Shown here: positions 8,667 through 43,624 of the stretch, one piece after another
How the letters are laid out: the number at the start of each line of letters is the position of its first letter
How positions within the stretch are numbered: the first letter of the stretch is position 1
Assembly: GCA_019239915.1 (NCBI GenBank)
Contig: JAFAZF010000035.1
Coordinates: 7,337-71,336 of the forward strand
Direction: 5' to 3'
DNA: 64,000 bases
Origin: Sphingomonadaceae bacterium
Lineage (GTDB): Bacteria > Pseudomonadota > Alphaproteobacteria > Sphingomonadales > Sphingomonadaceae
Made by a program: the position numbers and the translations under genes
The notes under the pieces: generated by a model
Seen by the model: the letters and a program-made list of their open reading frames with translations, nothing else
What the model was told of the DNA's origin: nothing
The model's database searches: none

Positions 8667-9594
8667 TGCGGCCGAGTAACGATGGCGTCGGCCGTGAACC
8701 GATGCCGCGCCAGCGCTTGCGACGCGCCGGGCTGGCGACGGCAATGCTAGCCGCCGCCCTGGTCGGCGCAAGCGGGGCCATAGGTCAGCGAACCTACTAT
8801 GGCGATCAGCAAGGCTCCCGCTTCATCAGTTTTGACCTGCTCCAGATTGCCGTGGCCCAGAAAAGAATGAACGCCGCGGAGCGGCGCGCGAGCATGGTGG
8901 CGCTGATCCGTCGCAACGCCCGCCGCGCCGCTCCCGCGCTGGATGATGCTTATTTCGAGGCCGCCTGTCGGCGATCGGCCGCATCCCGCGCGAGAAGTTC
9001 GTCCCGCGTGAGGCGCGCCAGGCCGCCTACTTCCCGATCCCGCTGAACATCGGACACGATCAAACCATCTCGGATGCCTACATCGTCGCGGTGATTACGG
9101 CGCAGCTCAAGCTGCCGCCCAACGCCGACGTGCTCGATATAGGAACCGGTTCGGGCTATCAGGCGGCGGTCCTGTCGCCGCTTGCGGGCCAGGTCTCCTC
9201 GATCGAAATCGTCGAACCGCTCGCCCTCGAAGCGGCAAAGCGGCTGCGCCATTTGGGCTATCGCAACATCGACGTTCGCGCCGGCGACGGGTTCGCCGGC
9301 TGGCCCGAGCGCGCGCCCTTCGACGGTATCGTGGTCGCTGCGGGCGCTGCCTCGATCCCGCAACCGCTGCTCGATCAGCTCAAGCCCGGTGGGCGGCTCG
9401 TCATGCCGATCGGCCCAACAAGCCCTCAGGAGCAGCTTCTGGTCATCACCAAGGAAGCGGACGGAAGCCTTACCCGCTGCACGCTCGGATTGACGCAGTT
9501 CGTCCCGTTCACCGGCCGGGGGAAGCGCCCTCCGAACCTGCCCGATCCCACCGGCAGAACGGTCCCCGGCTGCTTTGAGGTCGATGTGACATGA
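8663..9594 (+). pseudogene. pcm: secreted protein-L-isoaspartate O-methyltransferase-like gene, split by a 1-nt frameshift near 8963-8965
   Basis: Frame of ORF 8663..9046 gives a signal peptide (RRAGLATAMLAAALVGASGAIG) and ...MVALIRRNARRAAPALDDAYFEAA. The next frame continues LSAIGRIPREKFVPREARQAAYFPIPLNIGHDQTISDAYIVAVITAQL into ORF 9091..9594 (DIGTGSGYQAAVL SAM motif). Joined, they form a normal Pcm, but neither part alone is complete. ATG 8663 overlaps the RND stop (ATGA). Confidence 0.7.
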
Positions 9595-10663: not shown

Positions 10664-11521
10664 TCACGCCCGCGCCCCGCTCCCCGTGAGAGGCACGAAC
10701 TGAACAGGGCCGAGGGTAACTTGGCGAAGGGTTCCGTCAGGTTGCTTCGTCAGCATCACAAGGTGCTCATTCTCGGGATCAGGGCCTAGTGGCATGATCA
10801 GACGACCACCAGGCTTCAGCTGCTCGACTAGTGGTTGGGGAACCTGCGAGGCTGCCGCAGCGACCAGAATTACGTCGAACGGCGCAAACGCAGGAACACC
10901 CGCAAAGCCATCCCCGATTACCGTCGTGATGTTTCGAAATCCGAGTGCGCTAAATTGTTGCTCAGCATCACGAGCGAGCTTTGTCTTTATTTCAATGGTT
11001 ACAACGGTGTCTGCTAACATGGACAAGACGGCGGCGCCGTAACCAGAACCCGTGCCGACGTCGAGAACCGCTGCACCCGGCGGAATAGTAGCGGCCATCG
11101 CCATCAACGCCACTACAAAGGGTTGCGAGATTGTCTGCCTAGATCCAATATTGAGTGCATACGGGAGATAGGCGAAATCACGTGCCCAGGGCGGCAGAAA
11201 CTCCTCGCGTGGAACAGCGAGCATAGCCTTCACGACACGCGAAATATTCTCACTCGACAGATCAACGCCGCCCTCCAGCAGACTTGCCTTCACCTCGTCA
11301 ACCATCGCCTCCCGCTGTGCAGCCGGATCGTTTGGCAACGCGACGACGCGCTGCACAAGATCTTTGACGTCTATGACGGGCTTTGGCAAAGGCGCAACAA
11401 GTTCATCTAGTTGATCGAGGTTGATTTCGCCATTGCGAACGAGGCGCACGAGCAAGTTCAGATGCGCAATTGCATCCGCTGACTCGACACCGAGCTCTGA
11501 ACTTTCCATCCGCTTCGGCAT
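10664..11521 (-). CDS. pcm: protein-L-isoaspartate O-methyltransferase paralog with ~75-aa N-terminal extension
   Basis: C-terminal 210 aa is a canonical Pcm (AVPREEFLP...IGSRQTISQPFVVALM...LDVGTGSGYGAAVL...QLKPGGRLIMPLG). An extra N-terminal domain (MPKRMESSELGVESADAIAHLNLLVRLVRNGEINLDQLDEL...) precedes it. Start taken at ATG 11521. In-frame ATGs at 11608 and 11509 are also possible. Confidence 0.8.
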   Translation of the reverse strand: MPKRMESSELGVESADAIAHLNLLVRLVRNGEINLDQLDELVAPLPKPVIDVKDLVQRVVALPNDPAAQREAMVDEVKASLLEGGVDLSSENISRVVKAMLAVPREEFLPPWARDFAYLPYALNIGSRQTISQPFVVALMAMAATIPPGAAVLDVGTGSGYGAAVLSMLADTVVTIEIKTKLARDAEQQFSALGFRNITTVIGDGFAGVPAFAPFDVILVAAAASQVPQPLVEQLKPGGRLIMPLGPDPENEHLVMLTKQPDGTLRQVTLGPVQFVPLTGSGARA

Positions 11522-11650
11522 TCCAAGTGCAGACGGTCTGGCCACCCCGATTCCGCATCTCAATCCCGGCGGGGTCCCTGGGCTCGCGGTGTGCGCACAC
11601 GATAACATACCGACCTGGGCCCGCCGTTGCGACGGCGGGTGTGATAGAGA
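11201..11650. repeat. copy A of a diverged ~450-bp direct repeat (5' leader plus N-terminal domain of the long pcm paralog)
   Basis: Hand alignment to 17047-17500 gives roughly 75-80% identity. It includes a 20-nt perfectly identical block (tccaagtgcagacggtctgg, 11522-11541 vs 17349-17368) directly upstream of both ATGs. Confidence 0.7.
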
Positions 11651-29408: not shown

Positions 29409-32300
29409 TCACATCCCTATACTGATGCCGCGGCTCCGCCCGCGCCCCACGAGGTCGCTCAAGCATTGTCCGATGCTTCGTTCGCTATGTGCAGGCAGAC
29501 CAAGCGCAGCCTTGCGGTTGCGCAAGATAGATTCGACCTGCGGATCGCGTTCCAGGCTCTTCGCCATACCCAACATGCGATCCGCGACTTTGCGGGCGCG
29601 GCCTTCTTCATAGTCGCGAAGGAGCAGGCGTCGCTGCCGTTCAAGCGCCTGCCAACGCTGGATGAACGTGTCGGCCCGGAGCTGCGGGTTGTCGCGCATC
29701 TCGGCTTCGAGCTGCATGGCACGCAGCGTTGCTGACGTTCTGCCTTTCGCTGCTTCGGCGATCAGGTTGTTATCATTTGACAGCGCCATCTCGAGATCGA
29801 TGCGTCCGTTCGGCTGGATGGCGTCGAGACTAGCACGGCTCGCTGCAAGCTCCCGACGCTGCTCGTCGGAGTAGGGATCACCTACCGAATGGGAGAACCG
29901 CATGGCTTCCACGATCCTGGCGTGGCGGGTCACCGCAGCCGCAAGCTCCGGCCTACTCCAAGTATTAGCTGCCGGAGCCGCCCCGACCTTTTCGACGACC
30001 GCGCCGCTTTCCAGCTGCGCAGCCGGACGCAGCTTCAGGCCCGCAAACATATCTCGTGAAGGCTGTGCTTTTGGCGGCGCCACGATGATCTGCCGCCGAT
30101 CGCCGAAATCGCGGGCATAATCCGACGCCATGTCCTTCTGCCGCTCGCGCGACAGCGTGCGGGTGAGCTTGTCGCTATCGTCAAAGTCATCACTGCCATA
30201 GTGAAGCTCGACGCTCTCGCGATGCCGTGACAACGCGACATAGGCGGCGTGGCGGTCGAGCCCTGGCGTCGCCAGCACATAGGCGCGATCCACCGTCACG
30301 CCCTGCGCCTTATGAATGGTGGCCGCATAGCCATGATCGACCTTGGCATAGTCCTTGAGGTCGAAAGCAACAGCGCGGCCGTCATCGAGCATTACCGCCA
30401 TGCGCGCCGTGCTGACGCTCTCGACGGTGCCGATGCTGCCGTTCTTCACGCCCAGGCTGCGTTCGTTCTGCAAGAACATGATCCGATCACCGGGCGCGAA
30501 CAGCCGCTCACCGCGATCCGTCGTGATCGCCACATCCTCGCCGAGCCGTTCCACTCGCCGTAGCCGCTCACGGGCAAGCTCGTTGAGCGCCTGCACCTCA
30601 TTGCGTGTGTGGGTGAGAATGATGCGGCTGGCCTCGGGTGCCGCAGCGCGTTCCCGCTCCCAACGATCGATCAGCTCGGCACGCGCAGCTTCACGCGTTT
30701 CGGCGGCATGCACATGCCCCGCCTGCTCATAGGCGGCGAGCGCCTCGCCCGTGCGGCCGGTAGCGAGCTGACGGGTGGCATCGCGCTGCCATGCGTAGCG
30801 CTGCCGGCGGATGTCAGTGATCTCAACGTTGCCGTGACGCTCGGCGATCGAGCGGAACGCCGCGCCCGCTTCGATCGCCTGCAGCTGTTCCCGATCGCCG
30901 ACCAGCACGAGCTTGGCGCCACCCTGCTCGGCCTCGCGCACGATCCGCTCCATCTGCCGCGAGCCGATCATGCCGGCCTCGTCGATGACGAGCACGTCGT
31001 TGGGGCTGAGCTGCTCGCGTCCTTGCGCCCACTGATGCTCGATGCTGGCGACGGTGCGCGATGCGATGCCCGATCCGCTCTCCAAATTCTCGGCAGCGAT
31101 TCCGGACAGCGCCAGCCCCTGAACCCGATAGCCAGCGCTCTCCCACGCCTCCCGCGCCACACCGAGCATTGCCGACTTTCCGGTGCCGGCATAGCCGACG
31201 ATCACGCCAAGACCACGCCCGTCCGTGACATGCTCGAACGCGCATCTCTGCTCTGTCGACAGGGACATTCCGCGCCGTTCGGCAGCGACAAGCGCGCGCT
31301 CCCGATCCTGCTCGCGCACGACATGATGCGAGCGCGCCGCCATGGTCGACGTGGCGCGCTCCAGCCGCGCTTCGGTGTCGATCATGTCGCGGCTGGTGAA
31401 GCGCTGTTCACCGCGTCCGTCTCTGCCCAACGTGATCAACTCGGGCGACGCCTTCACCGCCGCGAGCACGCGATCGAACTGCTCTTTACCCTCGCTGTGC
31501 CGATGCACGAACATAGCGAGGTCTCGGTTGGTGAACGTCGCCTGCCCCTTGGTGATCGCGTCCAGCGCGAGCGAAGGGTTGGCGATGATCTTCTCGCCGT
31601 TTGATTGCGCGATCTCGCGATGCTCTTCGACCCGTTCGATCGCGAGCCCCTGTGCGGCCATGCGCATGGCGGCAGGGCCGATTTTGTTCTGCGGCTCAAG
31701 GTCGACGCCCTGCGCCTCAAGCGAGCGATGATCGACCCGCGCGTCTATATCGAGCGACGCGAGCCGTTCGTTGACATGATCAGCCCACGCTTCACGCCAA
31801 TGCTCCAGCAGCTCGGTTCGGTTCCACTCCCGGACCTTTGCGCCGAATCCCTCCTCGCCGACGCTGCGCATGCCCAACATGACATGTGCGTGCGGCTTGG
31901 CTTCGCCGTCGCTGCCGATATCCCAATGCACATTGAGATCGGCGACCATGCCGCGTGCGACGAACTCGCGCTGCACGAAGTCGCGCGCGAGCCGGACGGC
32001 TCCGGCCTGGTCCAGCTCGCGCGGCAGCGCGAACTCCACCTCGCGCGCGAGCTGCGCGTCCTTGCGCACCTCGGCTGCTTCGACGGCATTCCACAGCCGC
32101 TCGCGGTCATGCCATTCTTCCGGCGCGCCACCCGGCAACATCACCTCGGAGTGGATGACGCCGGCTTTATTGGAGAACTCGTGGGCACGCCCGAGCCGCT
32201 CGTCATAGAGCCGCGCCGTCGAGCGATACGCCGCCGCCGCGAGCGCGCTGGAGCCTGCGGCGCGCGAGATCACCTTTGCGGAGAAATGGTAGATCGCCAT
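29409..32300 (-). CDS. traA: Ti-type conjugative relaxase/helicase TraA (MobA/MobL relaxase + RecD-like helicase)
   Basis: Trimmed to ATG 32300: MAIYHFSAKVISRAAGSSALAAAAYR (catalytic Tyr), histidine motif KPHAHVMLG, Walker A VGYAGTGKSAML, C-terminal helicase motifs (TIHKAQGVTVD). 963 aa. Confidence 0.9.
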   Translation of the reverse strand: MAIYHFSAKVISRAAGSSALAAAAYRSTARLYDERLGRAHEFSNKAGVIHSEVMLPGGAPEEWHDRERLWNAVEAAEVRKDAQLAREVEFALPRELDQAGAVRLARDFVQREFVARGMVADLNVHWDIGSDGEAKPHAHVMLGMRSVGEEGFGAKVREWNRTELLEHWREAWADHVNERLASLDIDARVDHRSLEAQGVDLEPQNKIGPAAMRMAAQGLAIERVEEHREIAQSNGEKIIANPSLALDAITKGQATFTNRDLAMFVHRHSEGKEQFDRVLAAVKASPELITLGRDGRGEQRFTSRDMIDTEARLERATSTMAARSHHVVREQDRERALVAAERRGMSLSTEQRCAFEHVTDGRGLGVIVGYAGTGKSAMLGVAREAWESAGYRVQGLALSGIAAENLESGSGIASRTVASIEHQWAQGREQLSPNDVLVIDEAGMIGSRQMERIVREAEQGGAKLVLVGDREQLQAIEAGAAFRSIAERHGNVEITDIRRQRYAWQRDATRQLATGRTGEALAAYEQAGHVHAAETREAARAELIDRWERERAAAPEASRIILTHTRNEVQALNELARERLRRVERLGEDVAITTDRGERLFAPGDRIMFLQNERSLGVKNGSIGTVESVSTARMAVMLDDGRAVAFDLKDYAKVDHGYAATIHKAQGVTVDRAYVLATPGLDRHAAYVALSRHRESVELHYGSDDFDDSDKLTRTLSRERQKDMASDYARDFGDRRQIIVAPPKAQPSRDMFAGLKLRPAAQLESGAVVEKVGAAPAANTWSRPELAAAVTRHARIVEAMRFSHSVGDPYSDEQRRELAASRASLDAIQPNGRIDLEMALSNDNNLIAEAAKGRTSATLRAMQLEAEMRDNPQLRADTFIQRWQALERQRRLLLRDYEEGRARKVADRMLGMAKSLERDPQVESILRNRKAALGLPAHSERSIGQCLSDLVGRGRSRGISIGM

Positions 32301-32329
32301 GACGGCAATCCACTTACACTTCAAAGCGC

Positions 32330-32358
32330 ACGTCGGCACGACGTATAAGCGCGCCCTC
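32330..32358 (+). other. origin of transfer (oriT) core: inverted repeat plus MOBQ/Ti-type nick region
   Basis: ACGTCG-GCA-CGACGT (32330-32344) is followed immediately by ATAAGCGCGCCCT/C (32345-32358). As I recall them, the RSF1010 nick region is TAAGTGCGCCCT/C and the rhizobial/Ti oriT core is CGACGTATAATTGCGCCCT. The site lies in the traA-traC divergent intergenic region, as in Ti plasmids. Confidence 0.7.
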
Positions 32359-32470
32359 ACAAGAAATATCCTGTGAGAGACTGGGGCGTACCACCTTGTC
32401 TCAACAACTTTACAGCATTCCGCGATCGACTGCATTATCTTTGCTGCATCACTTCCAACCGGAGACACTG

Positions 32471-34114: not shown

Positions 34115-35431
34115 TTACACCGTCAGATTTGAGGAGCTTGCGCCTCCGCTTGTCGAAGATCGGCTCGCAGGTTCCTCAGCGATAGCAGCGCATTGCTCCT
34201 TCTCGCCTCCGCCGAGAAATTTCGCCCAATCTTCCATCAAAGGCCGGCGCCGCTCAATGGCGGCGCCGCGGCGGTAAGCACGCTCGGCCTTGTTGCTGAT
34301 GGTGTGAGCCAAGGCTTGCTCGATCAGGTCGCGCGGAAACTCGGTCGCATCGCCCGCCCAGTCGCGAAAGGTGCTGCGCATGCCGTGCGTGGTGACCGTC
34401 ACACCCATACGCCGCAGCAACATCGCCATGGCCATATTTGAGCGCTGCGCGCCACCAACGGCGAAGATGCGCTGATCATCCTCAGGCTCTTCCGGGCAGA
34501 GCGCGAGCAAGATATCGATTGCAGCCCGCGCGAGCGGGACGACATGCTCAGCACCCGCCTTCATACGCTTCGCAGGAACCGTCCAGAGCTTCTGTTCAAA
34601 GTCGATCTCGCCCCACGTCGCGCCGAGCACCTCGCCGGATCGCGCGGCAGTCAGAATGGTGAACTCGAGCGCACGTGCCGCCAAGGCCGATCGCTGGCGC
34701 AGCTTCGCTATGAACATCGGCGCATCCCGCCAGGGCAGGGCACCATGATGGCCGCGGACGAGCTTAGGGCGCCGTGGTAGCAGCATCTCCAGGTGCCCCT
34801 TCCACAATGCGGGGTTCTGCGCTTCGATCGGACGCAAGCTGCGCGCCTTAGCCGCCGCCAAGATCCGCTCGATCCGCCCGCGCACACGGCTTGCGGTCTC
34901 CGGCTTGGAAAGCCAGATCGGCTGAAGCACCGCGAGAACGTCCTCGGTGCCGATCTCCGCAATCGGCTTGTCCTTCAGGCTCGCCGCATGATCTCGCAGC
35001 GACGTGCGCCACTGCCTGCGGTGGATCTCGTTCTTCCAGCCGCCTTCGATGCTTTCGATGTAAGCGTCAGCGAAGGTGCCGAAGGTGGTGATTGGAGAGG
35101 CCTGGTTCGACGCCTTTGGCGCGAGCACCGCGCGCGGCTCGCCGCCCGTCGCAATTGCCTCGCGCATCTCGCTCGCGAGCTTACGCGCGGTCGCGAGCGA
35201 CACAGCCGCCTCCGGACCTAAACCAATCTCGGCTCGCTTACCGCGGCTCGCTGCCATGAAGACCCAACAGCGCGCGCCCGCAGGTGTAATCCTCAGGTAA
35301 AGGCCACCGCCATCGGCGTGACGGCCCACAGCTTTTAGGGACGCCACCTTGCGTGCGGAAAGACGGTTGAAAGCGCGTGCCACGAAACCCTCCGCATAAC
35401 GCTTCGGCCTGATCCTCGTGCCCACTTTCAT
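34115..35431 (-). CDS. int: tyrosine recombinase/integrase (P4-like)
   Basis: Trimmed to ATG 35431. N-terminal arm-binding pattern LKAVGRHADGGGLYLRITPAGARCWVFMAASRGKRAEIGLGPEAAVSLATAR. Catalytic region ...TAARSGEVLGATW...HGMRSTFRDWA...LAHTISNKAERAYRR (R..HxxR..Y). Confidence 0.9.
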   Translation of the reverse strand: MKVGTRIRPKRYAEGFVARAFNRLSARKVASLKAVGRHADGGGLYLRITPAGARCWVFMAASRGKRAEIGLGPEAAVSLATARKLASEMREAIATGGEPRAVLAPKASNQASPITTFGTFADAYIESIEGGWKNEIHRRQWRTSLRDHAASLKDKPIAEIGTEDVLAVLQPIWLSKPETASRVRGRIERILAAAKARSLRPIEAQNPALWKGHLEMLLPRRPKLVRGHHGALPWRDAPMFIAKLRQRSALAARALEFTILTAARSGEVLGATWGEIDFEQKLWTVPAKRMKAGAEHVVPLARAAIDILLALCPEEPEDDQRIFAVGGAQRSNMAMAMLLRRMGVTVTTHGMRSTFRDWAGDATEFPRDLIEQALAHTISNKAERAYRRGAAIERRRPLMEDWAKFLGGGEKEQCAAIAEEPASRSSTSGGASSSNLTV

Positions 35432-36041
35432 GCCCACTTGCAACCGCGCTTTAACGGCATTCAGCGGAACGCAGTGGAATGAACGTTTCGCCTCCTGTGA
35501 AATGAAGACCCGCAATATCAACAATTTGTTACTGACCAAGAGGTTTCATCTCGGCGCAACATGAGGCGCATTAGAAGGACTCCGTCTCCGCCAGCGCTTC
35601 GCTAAGCGCCTGAAACGGCAGGAACATTGGCAGAGCGGCGCTTGCGGCGGCAGCTTTGCGACAATGTGTGCTACATAAATCTCTCGCCCACCAGTGCAGC
35701 GCGTCGCTAAGCATCTGATCCGTCGCGGGAGCGATTTCACCCGCCGTCGGAGCATTCCTGCCTATGCCCGCGAGGCGTTCGCGGGTTGCGGGAATATGTG
35801 CGCAGCCTTGGCGACATCTCACTCGGGCGGGCGAAGCGCATTAGCCTCCCCTCCGATAAGAATATTCTTTGCACCACGGACCGTTCGGCTAGGATCACCT
35901 TGAGACCAGCCGAAGATGTCAGATGTATATTACGTACGACCGCGTTTCAACGATCAGTCCGCTAGGCTTGAGGATATCCTTGCGGTAGCGCACGTCATCT
36001 TGTGCGCTGGCGGAACTCCTGGGGCGTTGACCCATTAACGG

Positions 36042-37079
36042 ATGAGGAAGGCCGGACCATTGGCGAGCGTCGCGAAGAAGGACATCATCGCCATCGGCGG
36101 ATCCGCCGGCAGCAGTGCCGTGCTCAAGCAGTTGCTGAGCCAACTGCCTGAAGGGCTTCCGGCGAGCATCTTCATCAGCACGCACATTCCGGCGCATTCG
36201 CCGAGTATGCTCGCCGAGGTGCTGGCCGGAAATGCTGCGCTGCCGGTCGCGCAGGCCATCGACGGCCAGCCGATCGAGCAAGGGCGGGTCTATGTCGCCG
36301 CGCCAGACCGCCATCTGTTGCTGACCGACGGCGCCATCCGGCTGGGGACGGGGCCGCGCGAGAACATGGTGCGGCCCTCGATCGATCCGATGTTCCGCTC
36401 GGCAGCGCTCTCCTACGGGTCACGTGTCGTTGGCGTCGTGCTGACCGGGCTTCTGAACGACGGCGCTTCGGGGCTCCACGTCATTAAGTCTGCAGGCGGG
36501 ACGACCGTGGTGCAGCACCCGCTGGATGCCGAAGCCGATCAGATGCCGCTGTCCGCTCTCGAGTCGACCGACGTCGATCACGTCGCTCCTGCGGCGAAGC
36601 TGGGCGAGTTACTCATGACGATCGCGGGCACGGACGCCGGCCCCTTTTGTGACGCTTCGGACGAGCTGCGCCTCGAGGTGGAGATTGCAGCCGGCGTGCG
36701 GCTGGGAAGCGACCGGCTGCGACGGATCGCGACGCCGAGCGCACTCTCGTGCCCGGACTGTCATGGCGTGCTGTCCGAGATGAATGGCAGTCGTCCTTTA
36801 CGCTATCGCTGCCAGATCGGCCATGGCTACACGGCCGAAAGCCTCGTGGCGCATATCGACGAGGTCGACGAGGCGGTCCGGATCGCCATGCGCGTGATGG
36901 AGGAGCGCGTGACGCTGGTCGAGCGCATGGCGAAGGATGCGCGCGACACCGGGCGCACGGCGGTGGCGGAACTCTACGAGGCGCGAGCGGAGGAGTATCG
37001 CCGCTATGCCAGCACGCTGCGAGAGGCGGCAGTGACCTCGCTGCGCCTGGGACGAGCGCCCCGCGAGCAGGACATCTGA
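36042..37079 (+). CDS. stand-alone CheB-type methylesterase domain protein with C-terminal Cys/His cluster and helical tail
   Basis: 345 aa. IIAIGGSAGSSAVLKQLLSQLP (nucleophile Ser motif), ...GVVLTGLLNDGASG... No REC domain. CPDCHGVL-x14-YRCQIGH at residues 237-261. Confidence 0.8.
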   Translation: MRKAGPLASVAKKDIIAIGGSAGSSAVLKQLLSQLPEGLPASIFISTHIPAHSPSMLAEVLAGNAALPVAQAIDGQPIEQGRVYVAAPDRHLLLTDGAIRLGTGPRENMVRPSIDPMFRSAALSYGSRVVGVVLTGLLNDGASGLHVIKSAGGTTVVQHPLDAEADQMPLSALESTDVDHVAPAAKLGELLMTIAGTDAGPFCDASDELRLEVEIAAGVRLGSDRLRRIATPSALSCPDCHGVLSEMNGSRPLRYRCQIGHGYTAESLVAHIDEVDEAVRIAMRVMEERVTLVERMAKDARDTGRTAVAELYEARAEEYRRYASTLREAAVTSLRLGRAPREQDI

Positions 37080-37144: not shown

Positions 37145-40100
37145 ATGCTCGAATCGGAAGAAGACGTGAAGGATCCCTCGGTCGGGGAGGAAGAGCGGTC
37201 CCGCGACGCGATTATGCCGGTCGTCGGGATCGGCGTCTGCGCGGCGTCGCTGCGCTCGCTCGAGACGCTGTTCACCGGTGTCGCGCCGAACTTGGGTGCG
37301 GCTTATCTGATCGCGGTGCGGCAGCAGGAAGGGCTGGACGTCGCCACGGTCGTCGAGATGCTCACCCGTCAGTCGGCGCTTCCGGTCAGCATCGGCGAGG
37401 ACGGGGAGCCGATCGAGCCGAACCACATCTATGTCGGCGGCTCCGACGACGTGATCGGGATCGAGGACGGGCACCTCAGCGTCCGCCCCACGACCGAGCC
37501 GATCGGAGAGCGCGGCATCATCGACACGATGCTGATCTCGCTCGCCGAGCACGCCCATGATCGCGCCGTGGCGGTGCTGCTCGGCGGCCTCGGTGGCGAG
37601 GGCACCGCGGGCATCACGGCGACGAAGAAATATGGCGGCCTTTCGATCGGGGAGGCCAACACCCCGGATGATGACAATCGCGATCAAGGGGCGGCCGGTC
37701 CGTTCGGGGTCGTCGACCTGCACGTACCCGTCGAGCAGATCGCCACCCAGATTGCGCTCTACCTCAACAATATCGCCAGCATTGCGGCTGCTCCCGAACA
37801 GGAGGAGCTTCCCGAGCAGGTCGAGGCGCAGGTCACCCAGATCACGACCATCCTGCGCAACGTCACCAGCCACGACTTCCACGGCTACAAGCGGGGCACA
37901 TTCCTGCGCCGCGTGCATCGGCGGCTGCAGGTGCTCCAGATCGACTCGATCGACGCGTATGTCGCGCGCCTGCGGAGCGATCGGCAGGAGGTGCAGGACC
38001 TTTTCCAGGACCTGTTGATCGGTGTCACGCAGTTCTTCCGTGATCCGCAGGAGTTCGACGTTCTGGAGCGTGAGCTGCCCAGATTGTTCGAGGGCAAGAG
38101 CGCGGACGATCAATTCCGGGTGTGGGTGCTCGGCTGTGCCACAGGCGAGGAAGCCTATTCGATTGCGATTTTGCTGCGCGAGCAGCTCGCCAATCTCGAT
38201 CATCCGCCGCAGGTGCAGATCTTCGCGACGGATCTCGATGCGCGCGCGCTGGGTCTCGCGCGTGCCGGCCGCTATTCCAGGGCGATCGAGGATCAGATCC
38301 GTCCCGACCGTCTCGAACGCTGGTTCGTGCGTGAGGGCGACACCTATTGCGTGTCGAAGGAGCTGCGGGAGATGTGCATCTTCTCCCCGCACAATGTCAC
38401 CAAGGATGCGCCCTTCTCGCGCATCGACATTCTCTCATGCCGCAATCTGCTGATCTATCTGAGCACCGATCTCCAGAACCGTGTGATCCCGATCTTCCAC
38501 TTCTCGCTGCAACCGGGCGGCGTGCTGTTCCTCGGCAATTCGGAGAACGTCACCCGCCACCAGAAGCTGTTTGCGCCCGTCGATCGAAAGAACCGGGTCT
38601 TCCGCCGGCTGGAGACGGCGACGCGGATCATCCCCGACTTTCCGCTGAGCGCGCGGGCACGCGCCCCGGAGCCGCTCCATGCAACCTATCCGGCGGCGCC
38701 GTCACCGGCTCGCCTATCCGGGCCGGTCAGTCGCCAGGCGGAGGCGATCGCGGAGCGCTATGCGCCCGCCTACGTCGTCATCGACAATCAGGGCGACGCG
38801 CTGCACTTCTCCGGTCGCACCGGGCGTTATCTCGAGCCGGTGTCGGGCATGGCGAGCCTGAACCTGATCAACCTCGTGCATCGCGACCTGCGCGTCGATC
38901 TGCGCGGCGCGCTCCACCGGGCGATTTCGGAATCGCGACGCGTCGAGCTTCCGCGCCTCGCGCTGCGGCAGGACGACCGAACGATCGGCGTCAATCTCGT
39001 CGTGGAGCCGATCGGCACGGGGGACGTGACCTCGCTCGTCGTGCTCTTCCAGGACATGGGACCGCTGCCCGACGGCGCCGGTCCTGGCGAGGGGTCGGGA
39101 GATGCCGAGCATGTCGAGCGGCTCGAGGCCGAGCTGCGCCTGACGCGCGACCGGCTCCAGGCCACGATCGAGGAGCTCGAATCGACCAACGAGGAGCTGA
39201 AATCCTCGAACGAGGAATACCAGTCGATCAACGAGGAGCTGCAATCCGCCAACGAGGAGATGGAAACCTCCAAGGAGGAATTGCAATCGGTCAACGAGGA
39301 GCTGCAGACCGTCAACGGCGAGCTCGCTCATCGCGTCGCGGAATTGGGCCGCAGCAACTCCGACCTGAAGAACCTGCTGGAGGCGACGCAGATCGCCACG
39401 CTGTTCCTCGACAACGATCTGCGCGTTCGCAGCTTCACGCCGTTCGCGACCGAGATCTTCCACCTGCTCGAAACCGATGTCGGCAGGCCGCTGGGTCACG
39501 TCGTGTCGCGCGTCGATTATGCCGAGCTTCAGGAGGATGTCCGCCGCGTCCTGAAGACGCTGGTCCCGATCGAGCGGACCGTGGTCGATCCGCTTACGAA
39601 GCGCCAGTTCGCGGCGAAAGTGCTGCCCTACCGCAGCGTCGACAATTATATCAGCGGTGCGGTCATCACCTTCACCGATCTTACCGCCGTGCATCAAGCC
39701 GAAACGGCGCTGCGAGCCAGCGAGGGGCGGTTGCAGGCGCTGCTCTCCGCCAGTTCTCAGCTCATCTATCGGATGAACGCCGATTGGTCTGAGATGATCG
39801 ACATGGCCGGCAAGGGTTTCCTTGCCGACACACATGAGAGCAGGGCGTGGATGTCGCAGCACATCCCCGCAGGCGAGAGGCCGCGGATGCAGTCGGCGAT
39901 CGATCGCGCGGTGAACGCGAAGCAAGTTTTCGAGCTGGAGCATCGGGTCTGTCGCCTCGACGGCACGATCGGCTGGGCGATCTCCCGCGCGATCCCGATC
40001 ACCGACGGCGACGGCGAGATCGTCGAGTGGTTCGGCTCCGCAAGCGACATTACCGGACGCCGCGAGGCCGAGGAGGCGCTGCGCGAAAGCGAAGGACGCC

Positions 40101-41101
40101 TCAACTCGCTCGTCGAGGGACTGACGCAGCTCGTCTGGCGCGCGATCGACTCGGGGCACTGGACATGGGCCAGCCGCCAATGGCGCGACTATACCGGACA
40201 GACCGAGGCGGAGAGCAAGGGCTGGGGCTGGCTCGAGCCGGTGCATCCCGACGATCGCCCAACCGCCCGCGAGGCATGGAGCCGGGCGGCCGAGCAAGGC
40301 GGCTTCGAGGTCGAGCTGCGGATTCGCCGCGCGCACGACGGCGCCCACCGCTGGTTCCAGGTTCATACGAGCCCCATCAGGGACGATGGCGGTGCCGTCG
40401 TGGAATGGGTCGGCACCTCGACCGACATCAACGAGCTGCGCGATCTGCAGGAGCGGCAGGCCGTCCTCGTCGCCGAGCTTCAGCACCGCACCCGCAACCT
40501 GATCGGGGTCGTGCGCCAGATGGCGATGAAGACGGCGCGTGCGAGCAGCGACATGGACGACTTCCGCGACCGCTTCCGCGAGCGCCTGGACGCGCTCGCC
40601 CGCGTCCAGGGCTTGCTGTCACGGCTCAAGGAGCATGATCGCGTCGCGTTCGACGAGCTGCTACGGACGGAGCTGGCGGCGCATGGGGCGGAGGCCGACC
40701 AGGACGGCCGCGTCGTGATCGACGGTCCAAGCGGGGTGCGGCTGCGCTCGACGACGGTGCAGACGCTCGCCATGGCGCTTCACGAGCTTGCCACGAACGC
40801 GGTCAAATATGGAGCGCTGGGTCAGCCGGAGGCGCAGCTCGCCATCACATGGCGCATGGCGGACGGAGACGGCAGCGGTGAGCCCTGGCTTCACATCGAC
40901 TGGCGGGAGACCGGTGTCGCGATGCCGCAAGCGGACACCAGTCCGCAGGGCGGCGGCCAAGGCCGCGAGCTGATCGAGCGCGCTTTGCCTTACCAGCTCG
41001 CCGCGAGAACAACCTATGTTCTTGAAAGCGACGGCGTTCACTGCACGATCGCGATGCCGGTCTCGGCAACCAACTCCGCAGGACAGGATCAGGATGGCTG
41101 A
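37145..41101 (+). CDS. multidomain CheB-like/CheR methyltransferase - coiled coil - PAS x3 - HWE histidine kinase
   Basis: 1318 aa. N-terminal CheB-like domain (VVGIGVCAASLRSLETLF), CheR SAM domain (FFRDPQEFDVL...FRVWVLGCATGEEAYSIAILL), EE-heptad coiled coil (residues 673-727), PAS repeats, HWE kinase core (ELQHRTRNLIGVV ... LHIDWRETG ... GGGQGRELIE). Confidence 0.9.
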   Translation: MLESEEDVKDPSVGEEERSRDAIMPVVGIGVCAASLRSLETLFTGVAPNLGAAYLIAVRQQEGLDVATVVEMLTRQSALPVSIGEDGEPIEPNHIYVGGSDDVIGIEDGHLSVRPTTEPIGERGIIDTMLISLAEHAHDRAVAVLLGGLGGEGTAGITATKKYGGLSIGEANTPDDDNRDQGAAGPFGVVDLHVPVEQIATQIALYLNNIASIAAAPEQEELPEQVEAQVTQITTILRNVTSHDFHGYKRGTFLRRVHRRLQVLQIDSIDAYVARLRSDRQEVQDLFQDLLIGVTQFFRDPQEFDVLERELPRLFEGKSADDQFRVWVLGCATGEEAYSIAILLREQLANLDHPPQVQIFATDLDARALGLARAGRYSRAIEDQIRPDRLERWFVREGDTYCVSKELREMCIFSPHNVTKDAPFSRIDILSCRNLLIYLSTDLQNRVIPIFHFSLQPGGVLFLGNSENVTRHQKLFAPVDRKNRVFRRLETATRIIPDFPLSARARAPEPLHATYPAAPSPARLSGPVSRQAEAIAERYAPAYVVIDNQGDALHFSGRTGRYLEPVSGMASLNLINLVHRDLRVDLRGALHRAISESRRVELPRLALRQDDRTIGVNLVVEPIGTGDVTSLVVLFQDMGPLPDGAGPGEGSGDAEHVERLEAELRLTRDRLQATIEELESTNEELKSSNEEYQSINEELQSANEEMETSKEELQSVNEELQTVNGELAHRVAELGRSNSDLKNLLEATQIATLFLDNDLRVRSFTPFATEIFHLLETDVGRPLGHVVSRVDYAELQEDVRRVLKTLVPIERTVVDPLTKRQFAAKVLPYRSVDNYISGAVITFTDLTAVHQAETALRASEGRLQALLSASSQLIYRMNADWSEMIDMAGKGFLADTHESRAWMSQHIPAGERPRMQSAIDRAVNAKQVFELEHRVCRLDGTIGWAISRAIPITDGDGEIVEWFGSASDITGRREAEEALRESEGRLNSLVEGLTQLVWRAIDSGHWTWASRQWRDYTGQTEAESKGWGWLEPVHPDDRPTAREAWSRAAEQGGFEVELRIRRAHDGAHRWFQVHTSPIRDDGGAVVEWVGTSTDINELRDLQERQAVLVAELQHRTRNLIGVVRQMAMKTARASSDMDDFRDRFRERLDALARVQGLLSRLKEHDRVAFDELLRTELAAHGAEADQDGRVVIDGPSGVRLRSTTVQTLAMALHELATNAVKYGALGQPEAQLAITWRMADGDGSGEPWLHIDWRETGVAMPQADTSPQGGGQGRELIERALPYQLAARTTYVLESDGVHCTIAMPVSATNSAGQDQDG
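39161..39325 (+). repeat. 21-nt periodic coding repeat (eight EE-heptads) inside the CheR-HWE kinase gene
   Basis: ATIEELE STNEELK SSNEEYQ SINEELQ SANEEME TSKEELQ SVNEELQ TVNGEL. aacgaggagctg-type units recur every 21 nt. Confidence 0.8.
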
Positions 41102-41462
41102 CCGACCACTCGAACGATGCCGCATCCTCGTCGTCGAGGACGAGTATCTGCTCGCCGACGAAATGGCGGACGAGCTGATGGACGAAGGCGCCGTCGTGCT
41201 GGGGCCTGTGCCGAGCGTCGACGGCGCGCTGGCCCTGCTCGACGGCCAATCGCCGGACGGGGCGATCCTCGACCTGAATCTTGGTGGTGAACCGGCCTTC
41301 CGAGTAGCCGATGCGCTGATTGGCCGGGGCGTGCCGCTGATCTTCACAACGGGCTATGACGCCGGCGCGGTGCCGGAGCGGTTCTCGCACATCCGAAGGT
41401 GCGAGAAGCCGGTTAACCTCCGCCGGATCATCGCGGCGCTCGAGAAGGCGCTTCACGCCTGA
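41094..41462 (+). CDS. single-domain response regulator (REC only)
   Basis: Trimmed to ATG 41094, which overlaps the kinase stop (ATGGCTGA). RILVVEDEYLLADE..., AILDLNLGGE, FTTGY. 122 aa. Confidence 0.85.
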   Translation: MADRPLERCRILVVEDEYLLADEMADELMDEGAVVLGPVPSVDGALALLDGQSPDGAILDLNLGGEPAFRVADALIGRGVPLIFTTGYDAGAVPERFSHIRRCEKPVNLRRIIAALEKALHA

Positions 41463-41487: not shown

Positions 41488-41880
41488 TCAGTCGGTTGGG
41501 TTCGACTTGCGCGAAGCTGCCAGGCTGCCGAAGACGCTGACGAGCTGCCGGGGATCGACCGGCTTCTGCAGGCTTTCCGTGCCCGAAAACCGCTCGGGCA
41601 ACGTACCTGAATCATAACCGGTCACAAACGCGAACGGGATTCCGCGGGATTGCAGCGTGTCGGCCACCTCGAACGCCATCTCGCCGCGCAGATTGATGTC
41701 GAGCAGCACGCCGTCGATTGCGCCGCCGCCCTCGATCAGATCGCGCGCGTCGCTCACCGTTGCCACCGGCCCGAGCACTTCCGCTCCCACTTCGGAGAGC
41801 GCCGATTTTGCGTCGTCAGCCAGATAATATTCGTCTTCGACGATGAGAAGTCGGGTTCCGGCAAGTTGATGCGACGCCAC
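41488..41880 (-). CDS. single-domain response regulator (REC only)
   Basis: 130 aa. RLLIVEDEYYLADD, VLLDINLRGE, FVTGY. A paralog of 41094..41462 on the opposite strand. Confidence 0.85.
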   Translation of the reverse strand: MASHQLAGTRLLIVEDEYYLADDAKSALSEVGAEVLGPVATVSDARDLIEGGGAIDGVLLDINLRGEMAFEVADTLQSRGIPFAFVTGYDSGTLPERFSGTESLQKPVDPRQLVSVFGSLAASRKSNPTD

Positions 41881-42075: not shown

Positions 42076-42882
42076 ATGGTCGAAGAATCAGTTGCCCGCG
42101 AGCGGCTCGAGCCGGGGTCCGGTGCGGTCACGAGGCGGCAGCCTGCGACGGCTGAAGCCGCTGCGGACGAGTCCCCCGCCGCGCGTGAAATCGGCGAGCT
42201 GCGCGCCGCATTGGCAGCAGCGCAGGAGCGTGAGCGCGTGCTCGCCCATGAGCTGCAGCACCGCATCCGCAACATGCTCGGCGTGATCCGCTCGATCTAC
42301 CGGCGCACCCGCGAAAGCGGCGCCAGCCAGGACGAGTTCGCCGAGCATTTCGAAGGGCGCCTCGATGCGCTGGCGCGGTACCAGGCCCAGGTCGACCATG
42401 TCGGCGCGATCGGCATCGAAGTCGAAGACATGGTGCGCAACGAGCTGCTCGAGAGCCAGTGTCTCGACGGACCGAAGTGCACGATTTCAGGCCCGCCGGT
42501 TCACCTCCGTCAGAAGCCGGCCGAGCTCATGGGGCTGGCGATCCACGAGCTTGCCACCAACGCCATCAAGTTTGGCGCACTTGCGCAACATGGCAGGCTC
42601 GACATCGAATGGTCCCTCGAAGAAGCGGCGGCGGCCGACCTGCTGCGTTTCCGCTGGACCGAGAGCGGCGTTTCCGTCGTGGTCCCGGCGCCGCGGCCTT
42701 CCGGGTTCGGACGCCAGCTGATCGAGGAAGCCCTGCCCTATCAGCTCGGAGCCACAACCAGCTTCGATCTCAAGCCCGGCGGCGTGGAATGCTCCATCCT
42801 GCTTCCCCTACGCGGCCTGACTGCCAAGCCCGATGATCAAGCGGATGAAGAGCCTCCCGCTCTGCCATCCGCAGTGGAGTGA
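42076..42882 (+). CDS. soluble HWE-family histidine kinase without recognisable sensor domain
   Basis: 268 aa. Short coiled coil, then ELQHRIRNMLGVIRSIYRRT (H-box), AIHELATNAIKFGAL, RLDIEWSLEE, SGFGRQLIE. Confidence 0.85.
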   Translation: MVEESVARERLEPGSGAVTRRQPATAEAAADESPAAREIGELRAALAAAQERERVLAHELQHRIRNMLGVIRSIYRRTRESGASQDEFAEHFEGRLDALARYQAQVDHVGAIGIEVEDMVRNELLESQCLDGPKCTISGPPVHLRQKPAELMGLAIHELATNAIKFGALAQHGRLDIEWSLEEAAAADLLRFRWTESGVSVVVPAPRPSGFGRQLIEEALPYQLGATTSFDLKPGGVECSILLPLRGLTAKPDDQADEEPPALPSAVE

Positions 42883-42886
42883 TCCC

Positions 42887-43624
42887 ATGACTATCTTGAA
42901 AGCGCCGCTCGCCGGTGGGTCGCCTTTATTGACGCGGCTGTCCCGCCTGACGCGCCTCGATGATATGGCGGTAGAAGCGTTGCAGACAGCGGCGAGGGAC
43001 GTGCGCCGCTCGCCCCCGCGGCGGGAGCTGATCTCGGAGGGTGAGCCGATCCGCGAAAGGTACGCGCTGCTAGCGGGCTGGGCCTGCCGGCAGCGCATCC
43101 TGTCCGATGGGCGGCGTCAGATCCTGAGCTTCCTGCTGCCCGGCGACCTCATCGGCGTGTGTCAGCACAGCAATCCCTTGGCTGCGACGACGATAATTGC
43201 GATCAGCGAGTTGGTGACCTGTCCGGCACCCGTTGCCGATCCAGGCAGCGCCCTCGCTGAGGCTTATGCTCGAAGCGCCGCGCTCGAAGAGCGTTACATG
43301 TTGGCGCACATCACTCGTCTGGGGAGGTTCGATGCTAGGGAGCGGTTGGCAGACTGGCTCCTCGAGACGCAGCAGCGTCTTGCCACGACGGGTCTCTCGG
43401 TTGCCGATCAGTTTCCGCTGCCGCTGACGCAGGAGATGTTGGCAGATGCACTCGGGCTCACGAGCGTTCACGTCAATAGAACGCTGCAAGCGATGCGACG
43501 CGACGGCTTGCTGATCTTGCGTCAAGGAATGGCGTTCCTCCCTGACCGCGATCAACTCGAGAAGCTGGTCGAATATAAGCCCGCGCGCGTGAGCGCTGGC
43601 GGCGAAAACTACGCGACGCCATAG
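42887..43624 (+). CDS. Crp/Fnr-family transcriptional regulator
   Basis: Trimmed to ATG 42887. cNMP-binding-like barrel (RRELISEGEPIRERYALLAGWACRQRILSDGRRQILSFLLPGDLIG) and C-terminal HTH (LTQEMLADALGLTSVHVNRTLQAMRRDGLL). Confidence 0.85.
   Translation: MTILKAPLAGGSPLLTRLSRLTRLDDMAVEALQTAARDVRRSPPRRELISEGEPIRERYALLAGWACRQRILSDGRRQILSFLLPGDLIGVCQHSNPLAATTIIAISELVTCPAPVADPGSALAEAYARSAALEERYMLAHITRLGRFDARERLADWLLETQQRLATTGLSVADQFPLPLTQEMLADALGLTSVHVNRTLQAMRRDGLLILRQGMAFLPDRDQLEKLVEYKPARVSAGGENYATP

Follow-up and report, generated by a model that had tools for sequence, protein, structure and literature searches.

The locus

A 64,000-nucleotide stretch of DNA from a Sphingomonadaceae bacterium (contig JAFAZF010000035.1; this whole stretch is called the window here) encodes a 1318-residue protein in which CheB-like and CheR domains are fused to PAS domains and a histidine kinase, and in which a long predicted helix between two PAS folds carries a regular array of Glu-Glu pairs. 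That array is the subject of this text, together with the possibility, raised by an initial annotation of the DNA, that it is a built-in methyl-accepting helix and the enzyme's own substrate. The features of the protein, and the two genes that adjoin it, are the following.

36060..37079, + strand: stand-alone CheB-like methylesterase, 339 residues, TTG start (open reading frame called from 36042; Pfam CheB_methylest, E=1.4e-50)
37145..41101, + strand: whole open reading frame of the fusion protein, 1318 residues: CheB-like, CheR, PAS-like, long helix, PAS_10, two PAS, HWE histidine kinase (translation and Pfam)
37223..37753, + strand: fused CheB-like domain (CheB_methylest, PF01339), residues 27-203 (Pfam E=3e-22; PDB alignments)
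37838..38587, + strand: CheR_N and CheR, S-adenosylmethionine-dependent methyltransferase, residues 232-481 (Pfam; CheR E=3.6e-48, CheR_N E=1.6e-12)
38720..39064, + strand: PAS-like domain, residues ~526-640 (PAS-type strand/helix pattern in the AlphaFold2 model; predicted local distance difference test score, pLDDT, ~86-95)
39101..39385, + strand: continuous alpha-helix with a Leu heptad column, residues 653-747 (AlphaFold2; heptad layout)
39161..39325, + strand: Glu-Glu array, residues 673-727, seven Glu-Glu and one Gly-Glu at a spacing of 7 (translation)
39365..39685, + strand: PAS_10 (PF13596), residues 741-847, directly continuous with the helix (Pfam E=1.6e-26; AlphaFold2)
39710..40444, + strand: two further PAS domains, residues ~856-1100 (Pfam PAS_3, PAS_4, PAS and PAS_9; TIGR00229 in two stretches)
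40475..41059, + strand: HWE histidine kinase (phospho-acceptor/dimerisation plus ATPase), residues 1111 to ~1305 (PF07536 HWE_HK, E=3.4e-17, residues 1111-1195)
41094..41462, + strand: single-domain receiver protein (Pfam Response_reg)

The fused CheR domain matches CheR structures at 1e-25 to 1e-28 in a sequence search of the PDB. The PAS-like domain at ~526-640, which is without a Pfam match in the window protein, separates CheR from the helix; the helix had been described as the linker between CheR and the PAS-HWE output, and that description has to be amended accordingly. The kinase belongs to the HWE histidine kinase family, its HWE_HK phospho-acceptor being followed by an ATPase domain. 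(The HATPase_c_2 match in this region is weak, and the PRK13559 and LOV-kinase models of NCBIfam, which span residues 1054-1308, score below their full-length cut-offs.)

The ATG of the receiver gene (41094-41101) shares 8 nucleotides with the stop of the kinase gene, ATGGCTGA, and the receiver is therefore likely to be the cognate response regulator of the HWE kinase; the arrangement also suggests that kinase and receiver are translationally coupled. An identical overlap is part of the annotation of Rhizobium sp. N324 (locus L083), and an overlapping receiver gene is common to Rhizobium sp. N324, Sphingomonas endolithica and loci from metagenomes.

The Glu-Glu array

Translation reproduces exactly the sequence and the coordinates first given for the array (residues 673-727, nucleotides 39161-39325), which reads ATIEELE STNEELK SSNEEYQ SINEELQ SANEEME TSKEELQ SVNEELQ TVNGEL, that is, repeats of the form S-x-N-E-E-L-Q. 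The count of eight perfect Glu-Glu heptads was too generous: there are seven with Glu-Glu and one with Gly-Glu, and in the first heptad Ile stands in place of the Asn or Lys of the rest. Among the 55 residues 17 are acidic and 2 basic. The 21-nucleotide periodicity noted in the DNA is recovered by Tandem Repeats Finder at 39162-39324 (6.9 copies, score 108), together with a period of 63 nucleotides (2.5 copies, 79% matches, score 186). Chance origin of the in-register pairs is excluded, because shuffling of the whole protein (n=5,000) never gave more than 4 in-register Glu-Glu pairs, and shuffling of the Glu-rich helix alone (n=20,000) also peaked at 4, against 7 observed.

An unbroken column of Leu runs from residue 657 to 741, with Asn (once Lys) three residues ahead of each Leu. 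Assignment of Asn to heptad position a and Leu to d would leave the Glu pairs exposed at b and c, and Ser/Thr at f. This register is preferred because the sole freely variable position of the heptad then falls at g, outside the core.

Conservation of the array across the family

Residues 1-860 were searched against 1.84 billion cluster representatives (50%-identity clusters), with 57,073 matches at E<=1e-3 and 13,513 at E<=1e-30. Conservation was analyzed in an alignment of the best 150 representatives (no two from one 50%-identity cluster; 37-74% identical to the query), all of them colinear with the window protein across the whole 860-residue module. A second sample comes from a scan of one genome per GTDB species by alignment of the helix plus PAS_10, in which all three peptide patterns were array-derived; the array-pattern scan found at least 596 species loci, and the best 80 of these were examined. 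They span the Alpha-, Beta-, Gamma- and Deltaproteobacteria, Acidobacteria, Verrucomicrobia, Chloroflexi, Bacteroidetes, Planctomycetes, Myxococcota and others. (The array itself thus had a part in the selection of both samples.)

A test proposed in the initial annotation was whether the Glu pairs and their register are the best conserved part of the linker, and they are: residues 690-724 form the most conserved 35-residue segment of the entire 860, with a mean column entropy of 0.67 bit, below even the CheR core (1.01 bit for its best stretch). At the five central pairs Glu is found in 143-149 of the 150 sequences. Asn689, 696, 703, 717 and 724 are conserved at 89-99%, Lys710 at 81%, and the Ser/Thr residues flanking the central heptads at 89-96%; 17 of the 55 columns of the array reach an invariance of 95% or more. 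Positions that would be exposed in a coiled coil (Glu, Glu and Ser/Thr) are as invariant as the core Asn and Leu, only the residue before Asn being freely variable, and this suggests that the exposed face may be a recognized surface rather than the product of packing constraint alone.

Seven in-register pairs are also the mode of the family (86 of the 150 representatives). Leu664 and Phe754 lie 90 residues apart in 139 of the 150, and 10 of the 11 exceptions differ by multiples of 7. Some homologues are without one or two heptads, changes coming as whole heptads; others (P0030, P0113 and P0245 among them) have 9-11 in-register pairs by way of a duplicated 14-residue double heptad, NEELETSKEELQST.

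The heptads keep their identity individually, including the one with Lys for Asn, across Proteobacteria, Acidobacteria, Chloroflexi, Bacteroidetes, Planctomycetes and others, and because of this heptad-by-heptad conservation the array is ancient and under strong selection, neither a generic acidic coil nor a recent repeat expansion. A coil or expansion of that kind, without specific function, would have accounted for the 21- and 63-nucleotide periodicity of the DNA and for weak, sub-threshold Pfam matches to eukaryotic coiled-coil families; conservation across phyla refutes it, the shuffles, which never exceed four in-register pairs, also speak against it, and it is extremely improbable. Homologues that retain CheR and CheB and lack the pairs in register, which the initial annotation had named as the sign of a merely generic coil, do not occur among the 150 representatives and 80 loci, a weak result given how these samples were drawn.

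Predicted structure of the helix

Residues 520-860 were modelled with AlphaFold2 as a single chain from an 88-sequence alignment (mean pLDDT 90.9). The model consists of the PAS-like fold at ~526-640, a disordered segment at 641-652 (pLDDT <50), one uninterrupted helix of 95 residues at 653-747 (fragment residues 134-228; pLDDT 93-99) and the PAS_10 fold at 751-845. With the register proposed above, the helix would most likely form a parallel two-stranded coiled coil in a dimer. The linker at 641-652 is gap-rich in the alignment as well as disordered, which fits mobile enzyme domains ahead of the helix.

In a Foldseek comparison with the PDB the nearest structures are tandem-PAS sensors such as DosP, FixL, Brucella LOV-HK and PpsR (TM-scores 0.21-0.33); no chemoreceptor was found, and only the PAS folds match, the comparison being silent on the helix. 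Searched against solved structures, the sequence of residues 520-860 gave nothing significant (best E=0.06, unrelated coiled coils). Pfam matches to CENP-F, THOC7, Fez1 and the like lie below thresholds and were rejected as generic coiled-coil noise.

The coiled-coil linkers of PAS kinases and related sensors (Brucella LOV-HK, FixL, DosP and the Q-linker of PpsR) share the layout of PAS, long helix and PAS, and the quantization of helix length in heptads is a further likeness. Those linkers are shorter, and have neither an invariant acidic repeat nor an attached pair of modifying enzymes.

This resemblance brings up the main rival account of the helix, as a purely signalling and dimerization coiled coil: PAS-helix-PAS_10 would be a sensor regulating the CheB and CheR domains, which would act in trans on ordinary chemoreceptors or on another protein, with genes elsewhere in the genome. 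We regard this as rather unlikely, and likewise its corollary that the role of the acidic pairs and of the ladder of Asn is to adjust how stable the helix is and in which register it packs. Continuity of the predicted helix between two PAS folds, and tandem-PAS sensors as the nearest structures, speak for it, as does a length fixed at 90 residues or shifted by multiples of 7, which is expected if the helix is register-sensitive. On the other hand, helices of this kind do not normally hold the exposed positions b, c and f invariant across phyla, or outdo an enzyme active site in conservation, and Ser/Thr-flanked Glu-Glu pairs at a spacing of 7, beside enzymes that have such substrates, are left without explanation.

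CheR, the fused CheB and the stand-alone CheB

The CheR domain of the window protein retains all of its motifs (FFRD, GEE, DxD and CRNxxIY), and R299, G334-E336, D363, D365, C432-R433-N434 and Y438 are conserved in 143-150 of the 150 representatives (95-100%). The case of the fused CheB domain is different. Alignments with PDB entries 1CHD, 1A2O and 3SFT, and the family alignment, place Cys32, Gln60 and Glu152 at the columns that the family fills with Ser, His and Asp, columns that we take to be Ser164, His190 and Asp286 of Salmonella CheB. Ser is present in 132, His in 130 and Asp in 137 of the 150 representatives, and all three in 122. The fused CheB of the window protein is thus predicted to be catalytically degenerate. 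Loss of the triad is typical of the sub-clade to which the protein belongs and does not exclude it from the family: degenerate strings (CQE, CQD or SQD) are found in the window and in loci L001, L003, L006 and L083-L087.

The stand-alone CheB encoded at 36060..37079, whose gene ends 66 nucleotides upstream of the fusion gene, has an intact Ser-His-Asp triad (alignment to 1CHD and 1A2O; hidden Markov model (HMM) alignment). Its TTG start is backed by an exact 339-residue homologue (P0271) and by relatives at 70-86% identity. A C-terminal extension of ~140 residues (~200-339) has an invariant, Cys-rich, zinc-ribbon-like CPDC...RCQIGH motif (AlphaFold2 pLDDT <50) and continues as a predicted helical hairpin (helices at 266-296 and 300-331), with no Pfam family above threshold; one might speculate that it targets the stand-alone CheB to the helix of the fusion protein.

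A stand-alone CheB gene also lies upstream of the fusion in L003, L004, L006, L007 and L083-L087. The order stand-alone cheB, fusion, overlapping receiver recurs on a Rhizobium sp. N324 plasmid, in Sphingomonas endolithica and Rhizosaccharibacter, and on metagenomic contigs; there the fused CheB has Gln for His and the stand-alone CheB has Ser-His-Asp, in 5 of 5 further loci of this alphaproteobacterial operon. Among the array-selected loci an intact CheB adjoins three of the four fusions that lack Ser or His, and 9 of the 66 whose fused CheB is intact (one-sided Fisher p=0.014, a value that ignores shared ancestry and stands for at most two independent events). That intact CheB genes adjoin fusions without the triad suggests that esterase activity may be needed at the locus, and would be supplied in trans when the fused copy decays.

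These observations bear on a further alternative, in which the array is a pseudo-substrate or docking rail: the CheR and CheB(-like) domains would bind to it, and be auto-inhibited or positioned thereby, but with no productive turnover. Its exposed face is extremely conserved, and its features are substrate-like without a full match to the consensus of chemoreceptor sites (considered below), both of which could be expected of a rail. Retention of the CheB fold in a clade that has lost Ser, His and Asp might even make the degenerate domain a non-catalytic reader of the helix, a notion to which we would give little credence. Docking without turnover nevertheless seems improbable: the catalytic motifs of CheR are selected as strictly as in active enzymes, recruitment of an intact CheB beside triad-less fusions points to real esterase chemistry, and seven repeated pairs are unnecessary for pure docking.

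Linkage to CheB and CheR, and variation of output

CheB, CheR, PAS, array and PAS_10 are found in a single open reading frame in 72 of the 80 loci, as judged with HMMs built from the family alignment. The remaining eight are truncations at contig edges, locus L072 (a 1.6-kb contig in which the script picked no open reading frame with an array) or frameshift splits; in the splits L009 and L080 an open reading frame for CheB and CheR lies immediately upstream, and two additional loci, from shorter matches, behave in the same way. Wherever it can be judged in the 80 loci, CheB-CheR is directly upstream of the array. A family HMM made from the PAS-like region matches at the same position in nearly all of the loci. 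Proteins of fewer than 600 residues that seemed to be without CheB and CheR were rejected as cases of an array on its own: they are fragments or frameshift splits, and in those open to a check CheB-CheR directly precedes them. Locus L002 is uninformative, its CheR region being spread over several frames, probably by assembly errors.

The domains that follow PAS_10 vary: nothing or PAS only, HWE_HK, HisKA with HATPase_c, or GAF. What the family conserves is thus CheB-CheR-PAS-helix-PAS_10, a kinase being just one among the outputs attached to it. The window protein, with seven Glu-Glu pairs and a 90-residue spacer followed by PAS_10, is a member of this CheB/CheR fusion sensor family. The many members that end at PAS_10 or one PAS domain later (open reading frames of ~890-1000 residues) include L015, L021, L037, L042, L061-L065 and L082, and no kinase or other recognizable output follows PAS_10 or a single PAS in P0190, P0204, P0236 and P0168; the module thus occurs by itself as well.

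The motif of the methyl-accepting chemotaxis protein (MCP) hairpin is found neither in the 64-kb window nor in 82 loci with 10-kb flanks, and no CheA, CheW or MCP domain is present among the 37 large open reading frames of the window. Both kinds of observation touch the account of the helix as pure signalling coil. Members without an output domain favor it, insofar as CheB and CheR could be the output themselves; the lack of any MCP gene within 10 kb in 82 loci counts against an action on chemoreceptors in trans.

An acidic helix might also sense or bind cations, polyamines, pH or another protein partner, its linkage to CheB and CheR being incidental. The very high density of negative charge (17 acidic residues in 55) and a ladder of Asn at one heptad position, which is unusual for a plain coiled coil, would be in keeping with such a role. 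Against it, the array never stands apart from CheB-CheR in the loci examined, nothing similar occurs among solved structures (best E=0.06), and no positive evidence in its favor was found; its probability is low.

A possible methylation-based adaptation module

To our knowledge, reversible glutamate methylation by CheR and CheB has been described almost only as chemoreceptor adaptation. The reading of the window protein that we prefer, with a confidence somewhat short of an even chance, is a modified form of the one in the initial annotation: in a signalling helix that dimerizes, the exposed Glu pairs would accept methyl groups from the tethered CheR, lose them again, in this clade, to the neighbouring CheB, and tune the kinase. 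The CheR domain, tethered by a poorly conserved linker of ~45 residues, would methyl-esterify Glu side chains of the pairs with S-adenosylmethionine. Methylation would strip negative charge from a segment with 17 acidic and 2 basic residues in 55, and so might shift the packing or register of the helix; the altered helix would change how a signal from the N-terminal PAS domain passes to PAS_10, to the two further PAS domains and to the HWE kinase, which would phosphorylate the translationally coupled receiver protein. Methyl groups would be removed by the intact stand-alone CheB encoded 66 nucleotides upstream, since Ser, His and Asp are all gone from the fused copy. The outcome would be a methylation-based feedback on, or memory of, a two-component kinase, operating without MCP, CheA or CheW. 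Glu methylation itself, the identity of the modified Glu, the effect on the kinase and the coiled-coil register are what we infer here.

For the family at large, CheB-CheR-PAS-helix-PAS_10 can be thought of as a possible self-contained, chemoreceptor-free methylation adaptation device, in which a tethered CheR and a fused or neighbouring CheB act on their own seven Glu pairs; we put this forward tentatively, as a proposition that could well prove wrong.

The array resembles the methylation helices of MCPs such as Tar and Tsr in several respects: Glu-Glu pairs at a spacing of 7 in a coiled-coil helix, Ser/Thr nearby, and a probable b/c register, which holds only if Asn is a and Leu is d, an assignment drawn from conservation. 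Position f is always small, as in chemoreceptors, and g is small in some heptads. CheR- and CheB-type enzymes are physically associated with MCP systems, and the window protein has such domains in the same polypeptide; charge neutralization tunes a histidine kinase in MCP systems, and would do the same here if the array is methylated. MCPs differ in having an MCPsignal domain, a hairpin and four-helix bundle, and encoded Gln, all of which the array lacks, and in having no counterpart of the Asn at each presumed a position. They also signal through CheW to CheA, whereas the window protein has an HWE two-component kinase in cis. The published consensus of chemoreceptor sites is [ASTG][ASTG]xx[EQ][EQ]xx[ASTG][ASTG], in which the methylated residue is the latter of the pair and sits at heptad position c (PMC6829392). 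In the seven Glu-Glu heptads of the array small residues fill two or three of the four small positions of this consensus, and in the Gly-Glu heptad one of the four. The site consensus that the initial annotation applied was a 9-mer shortened from this 10-mer; it does match the array, four times (at 673, 680, 694 and 701), and the full 10-mer does not match at all.

That last result is among a number of points that weigh against the methylation reading. The full 10-residue consensus has no match in the array because position -4 (heptad e) is always Gln, Glu or Lys, conserved and never small. MCPsignal (PF00015) has no match at E<=0.01 in the window protein. Chemoreceptor sites interchange Glu and Gln, as in Tar and Tsr, and at the ten central pair positions of the array Gln is found in 0-1 of the 150 sequences each. 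The known substrates of CheR and CheB are antiparallel four-helix bundles; the AlphaFold2 model has a single long helix and not a hairpin of the MCP type. Glu pairs, Asn and Leu are all invariant, which also fits a general structural or binding role, and the strict co-occurrence of array and enzymes might be mere inheritance of one conserved module. Some members are without a kinase output, and so tuning a histidine kinase is not what the module does in general. Finally, because the triad of the fused CheB is lost, the idea that the helix is the enzyme's own substrate would hold at most for the CheR half, removal of methyl groups needing the neighbouring CheB. By the tests that define one, the array is not an MCP methylation region, and its likeness to a methylation helix lies in spacing, probable register and part of the surroundings. 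(Lack of a full match to the MCP site consensus and absence of Gln also favor the account of the helix as a pure signalling coil.)

Tethering in the reading preferred here may have a parallel in chemoreceptors. In E. coli the NWETF pentapeptide tethers CheR and CheB to high-abundance chemoreceptors, and the shared logic would be that of a writer and an eraser held near their sites, at high local concentration, by a flexible arm. In the window protein the linkers that follow CheR and precede the helix, both poorly conserved, would play this part, as a covalent connection, unlike the NWETF docking peptide.

Related proteins and significance

The order CheB_methylest-CheR_N-CheR-PAS-helix-PAS_10 is that of the 'CheB/CheR fusion protein' family (KEGG K13924-type; 'CheR family methyltransferase' in RefSeq), a very large family, with thousands of whose members the window protein is colinear across 860 residues; the alphaproteobacterial HWE clade of the window departs from it in having lost the fused triad and in having a separate CheB gene ahead. 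Rhodobacter sphaeroides CheBRA, named a 'putative methyltransferase-methylesterase fusion', is likened to these proteins by its description. Database names for members are confined to 'CheR family methyltransferase' or 'CheB/CheR fusion protein'. In the open full-text literature, searched also with motif strings (subscription-only literature lying outside this scope), no paper was found on the array or on the substrate of these proteins; 'cheBR' and K13924 appear there only within gene lists, and CheBRA as merely 'putative'. A CheR-TPR survey, a PAS classification paper and a survey of che operons do not discuss the CheB-CheR-PAS-helix-PAS_10 architecture.

If the methylation reading is correct, CheR and CheB have a class of substrate beyond MCPs, and adaptation has been moved from chemoreceptor arrays onto a two-component sensor. 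Ordinary sensor kinases, and other outputs, would thereby gain a built-in chemotaxis-style memory or integral feedback, in more than 10,000 protein clusters and at least ten bacterial phyla. Sharp tests of the hypothesis are possible, with sites, writer, eraser gene and cognate receiver all within 5.4 kb, and a degenerate fused CheB with an intact stand-alone CheB would make the locus a natural case of catalytic loss replaced in trans.

The wider neighbourhood

Three more signalling genes lie downstream of the receiver.

41488..41880, - strand: second single-domain receiver protein (Pfam Response_reg)
42076..42882, + strand: short soluble HWE histidine kinase (Pfam HWE_HK, E=7.4e-15)
42833..43624, + strand: Crp/Fnr-type regulator (Pfam HTH_Crp_2 and cNMP_binding)

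Crp-like, PAS-HWE kinase and receiver genes also flank the operon in L084 and L086, hinting that a larger conserved signalling neighbourhood may surround it.

Just upstream of the cheB operon are genes for a MobA/MobL-type relaxase-helicase (29409-32468, - strand) and a tyrosine integrase (34115-35539, - strand), and a cluster of open reading frames for polysaccharide synthesis at ~13-25 kb does not reach a third-position G+C cut-off of 0.78, which housekeeping genes on either side do pass. These genes and the low third-position G+C of the cluster suggest the presence of an integrated mobile element; there is no tRNA gene between 32 and 37.2 kb of the window. Elsewhere in the window, two paralogous protein-L-isoaspartate O-methyltransferase (PCMT) genes (9091-9594, + strand, and 10664-11608, - strand) lie ~1 kb apart and flank a gene for the lipoprotein MlaA.

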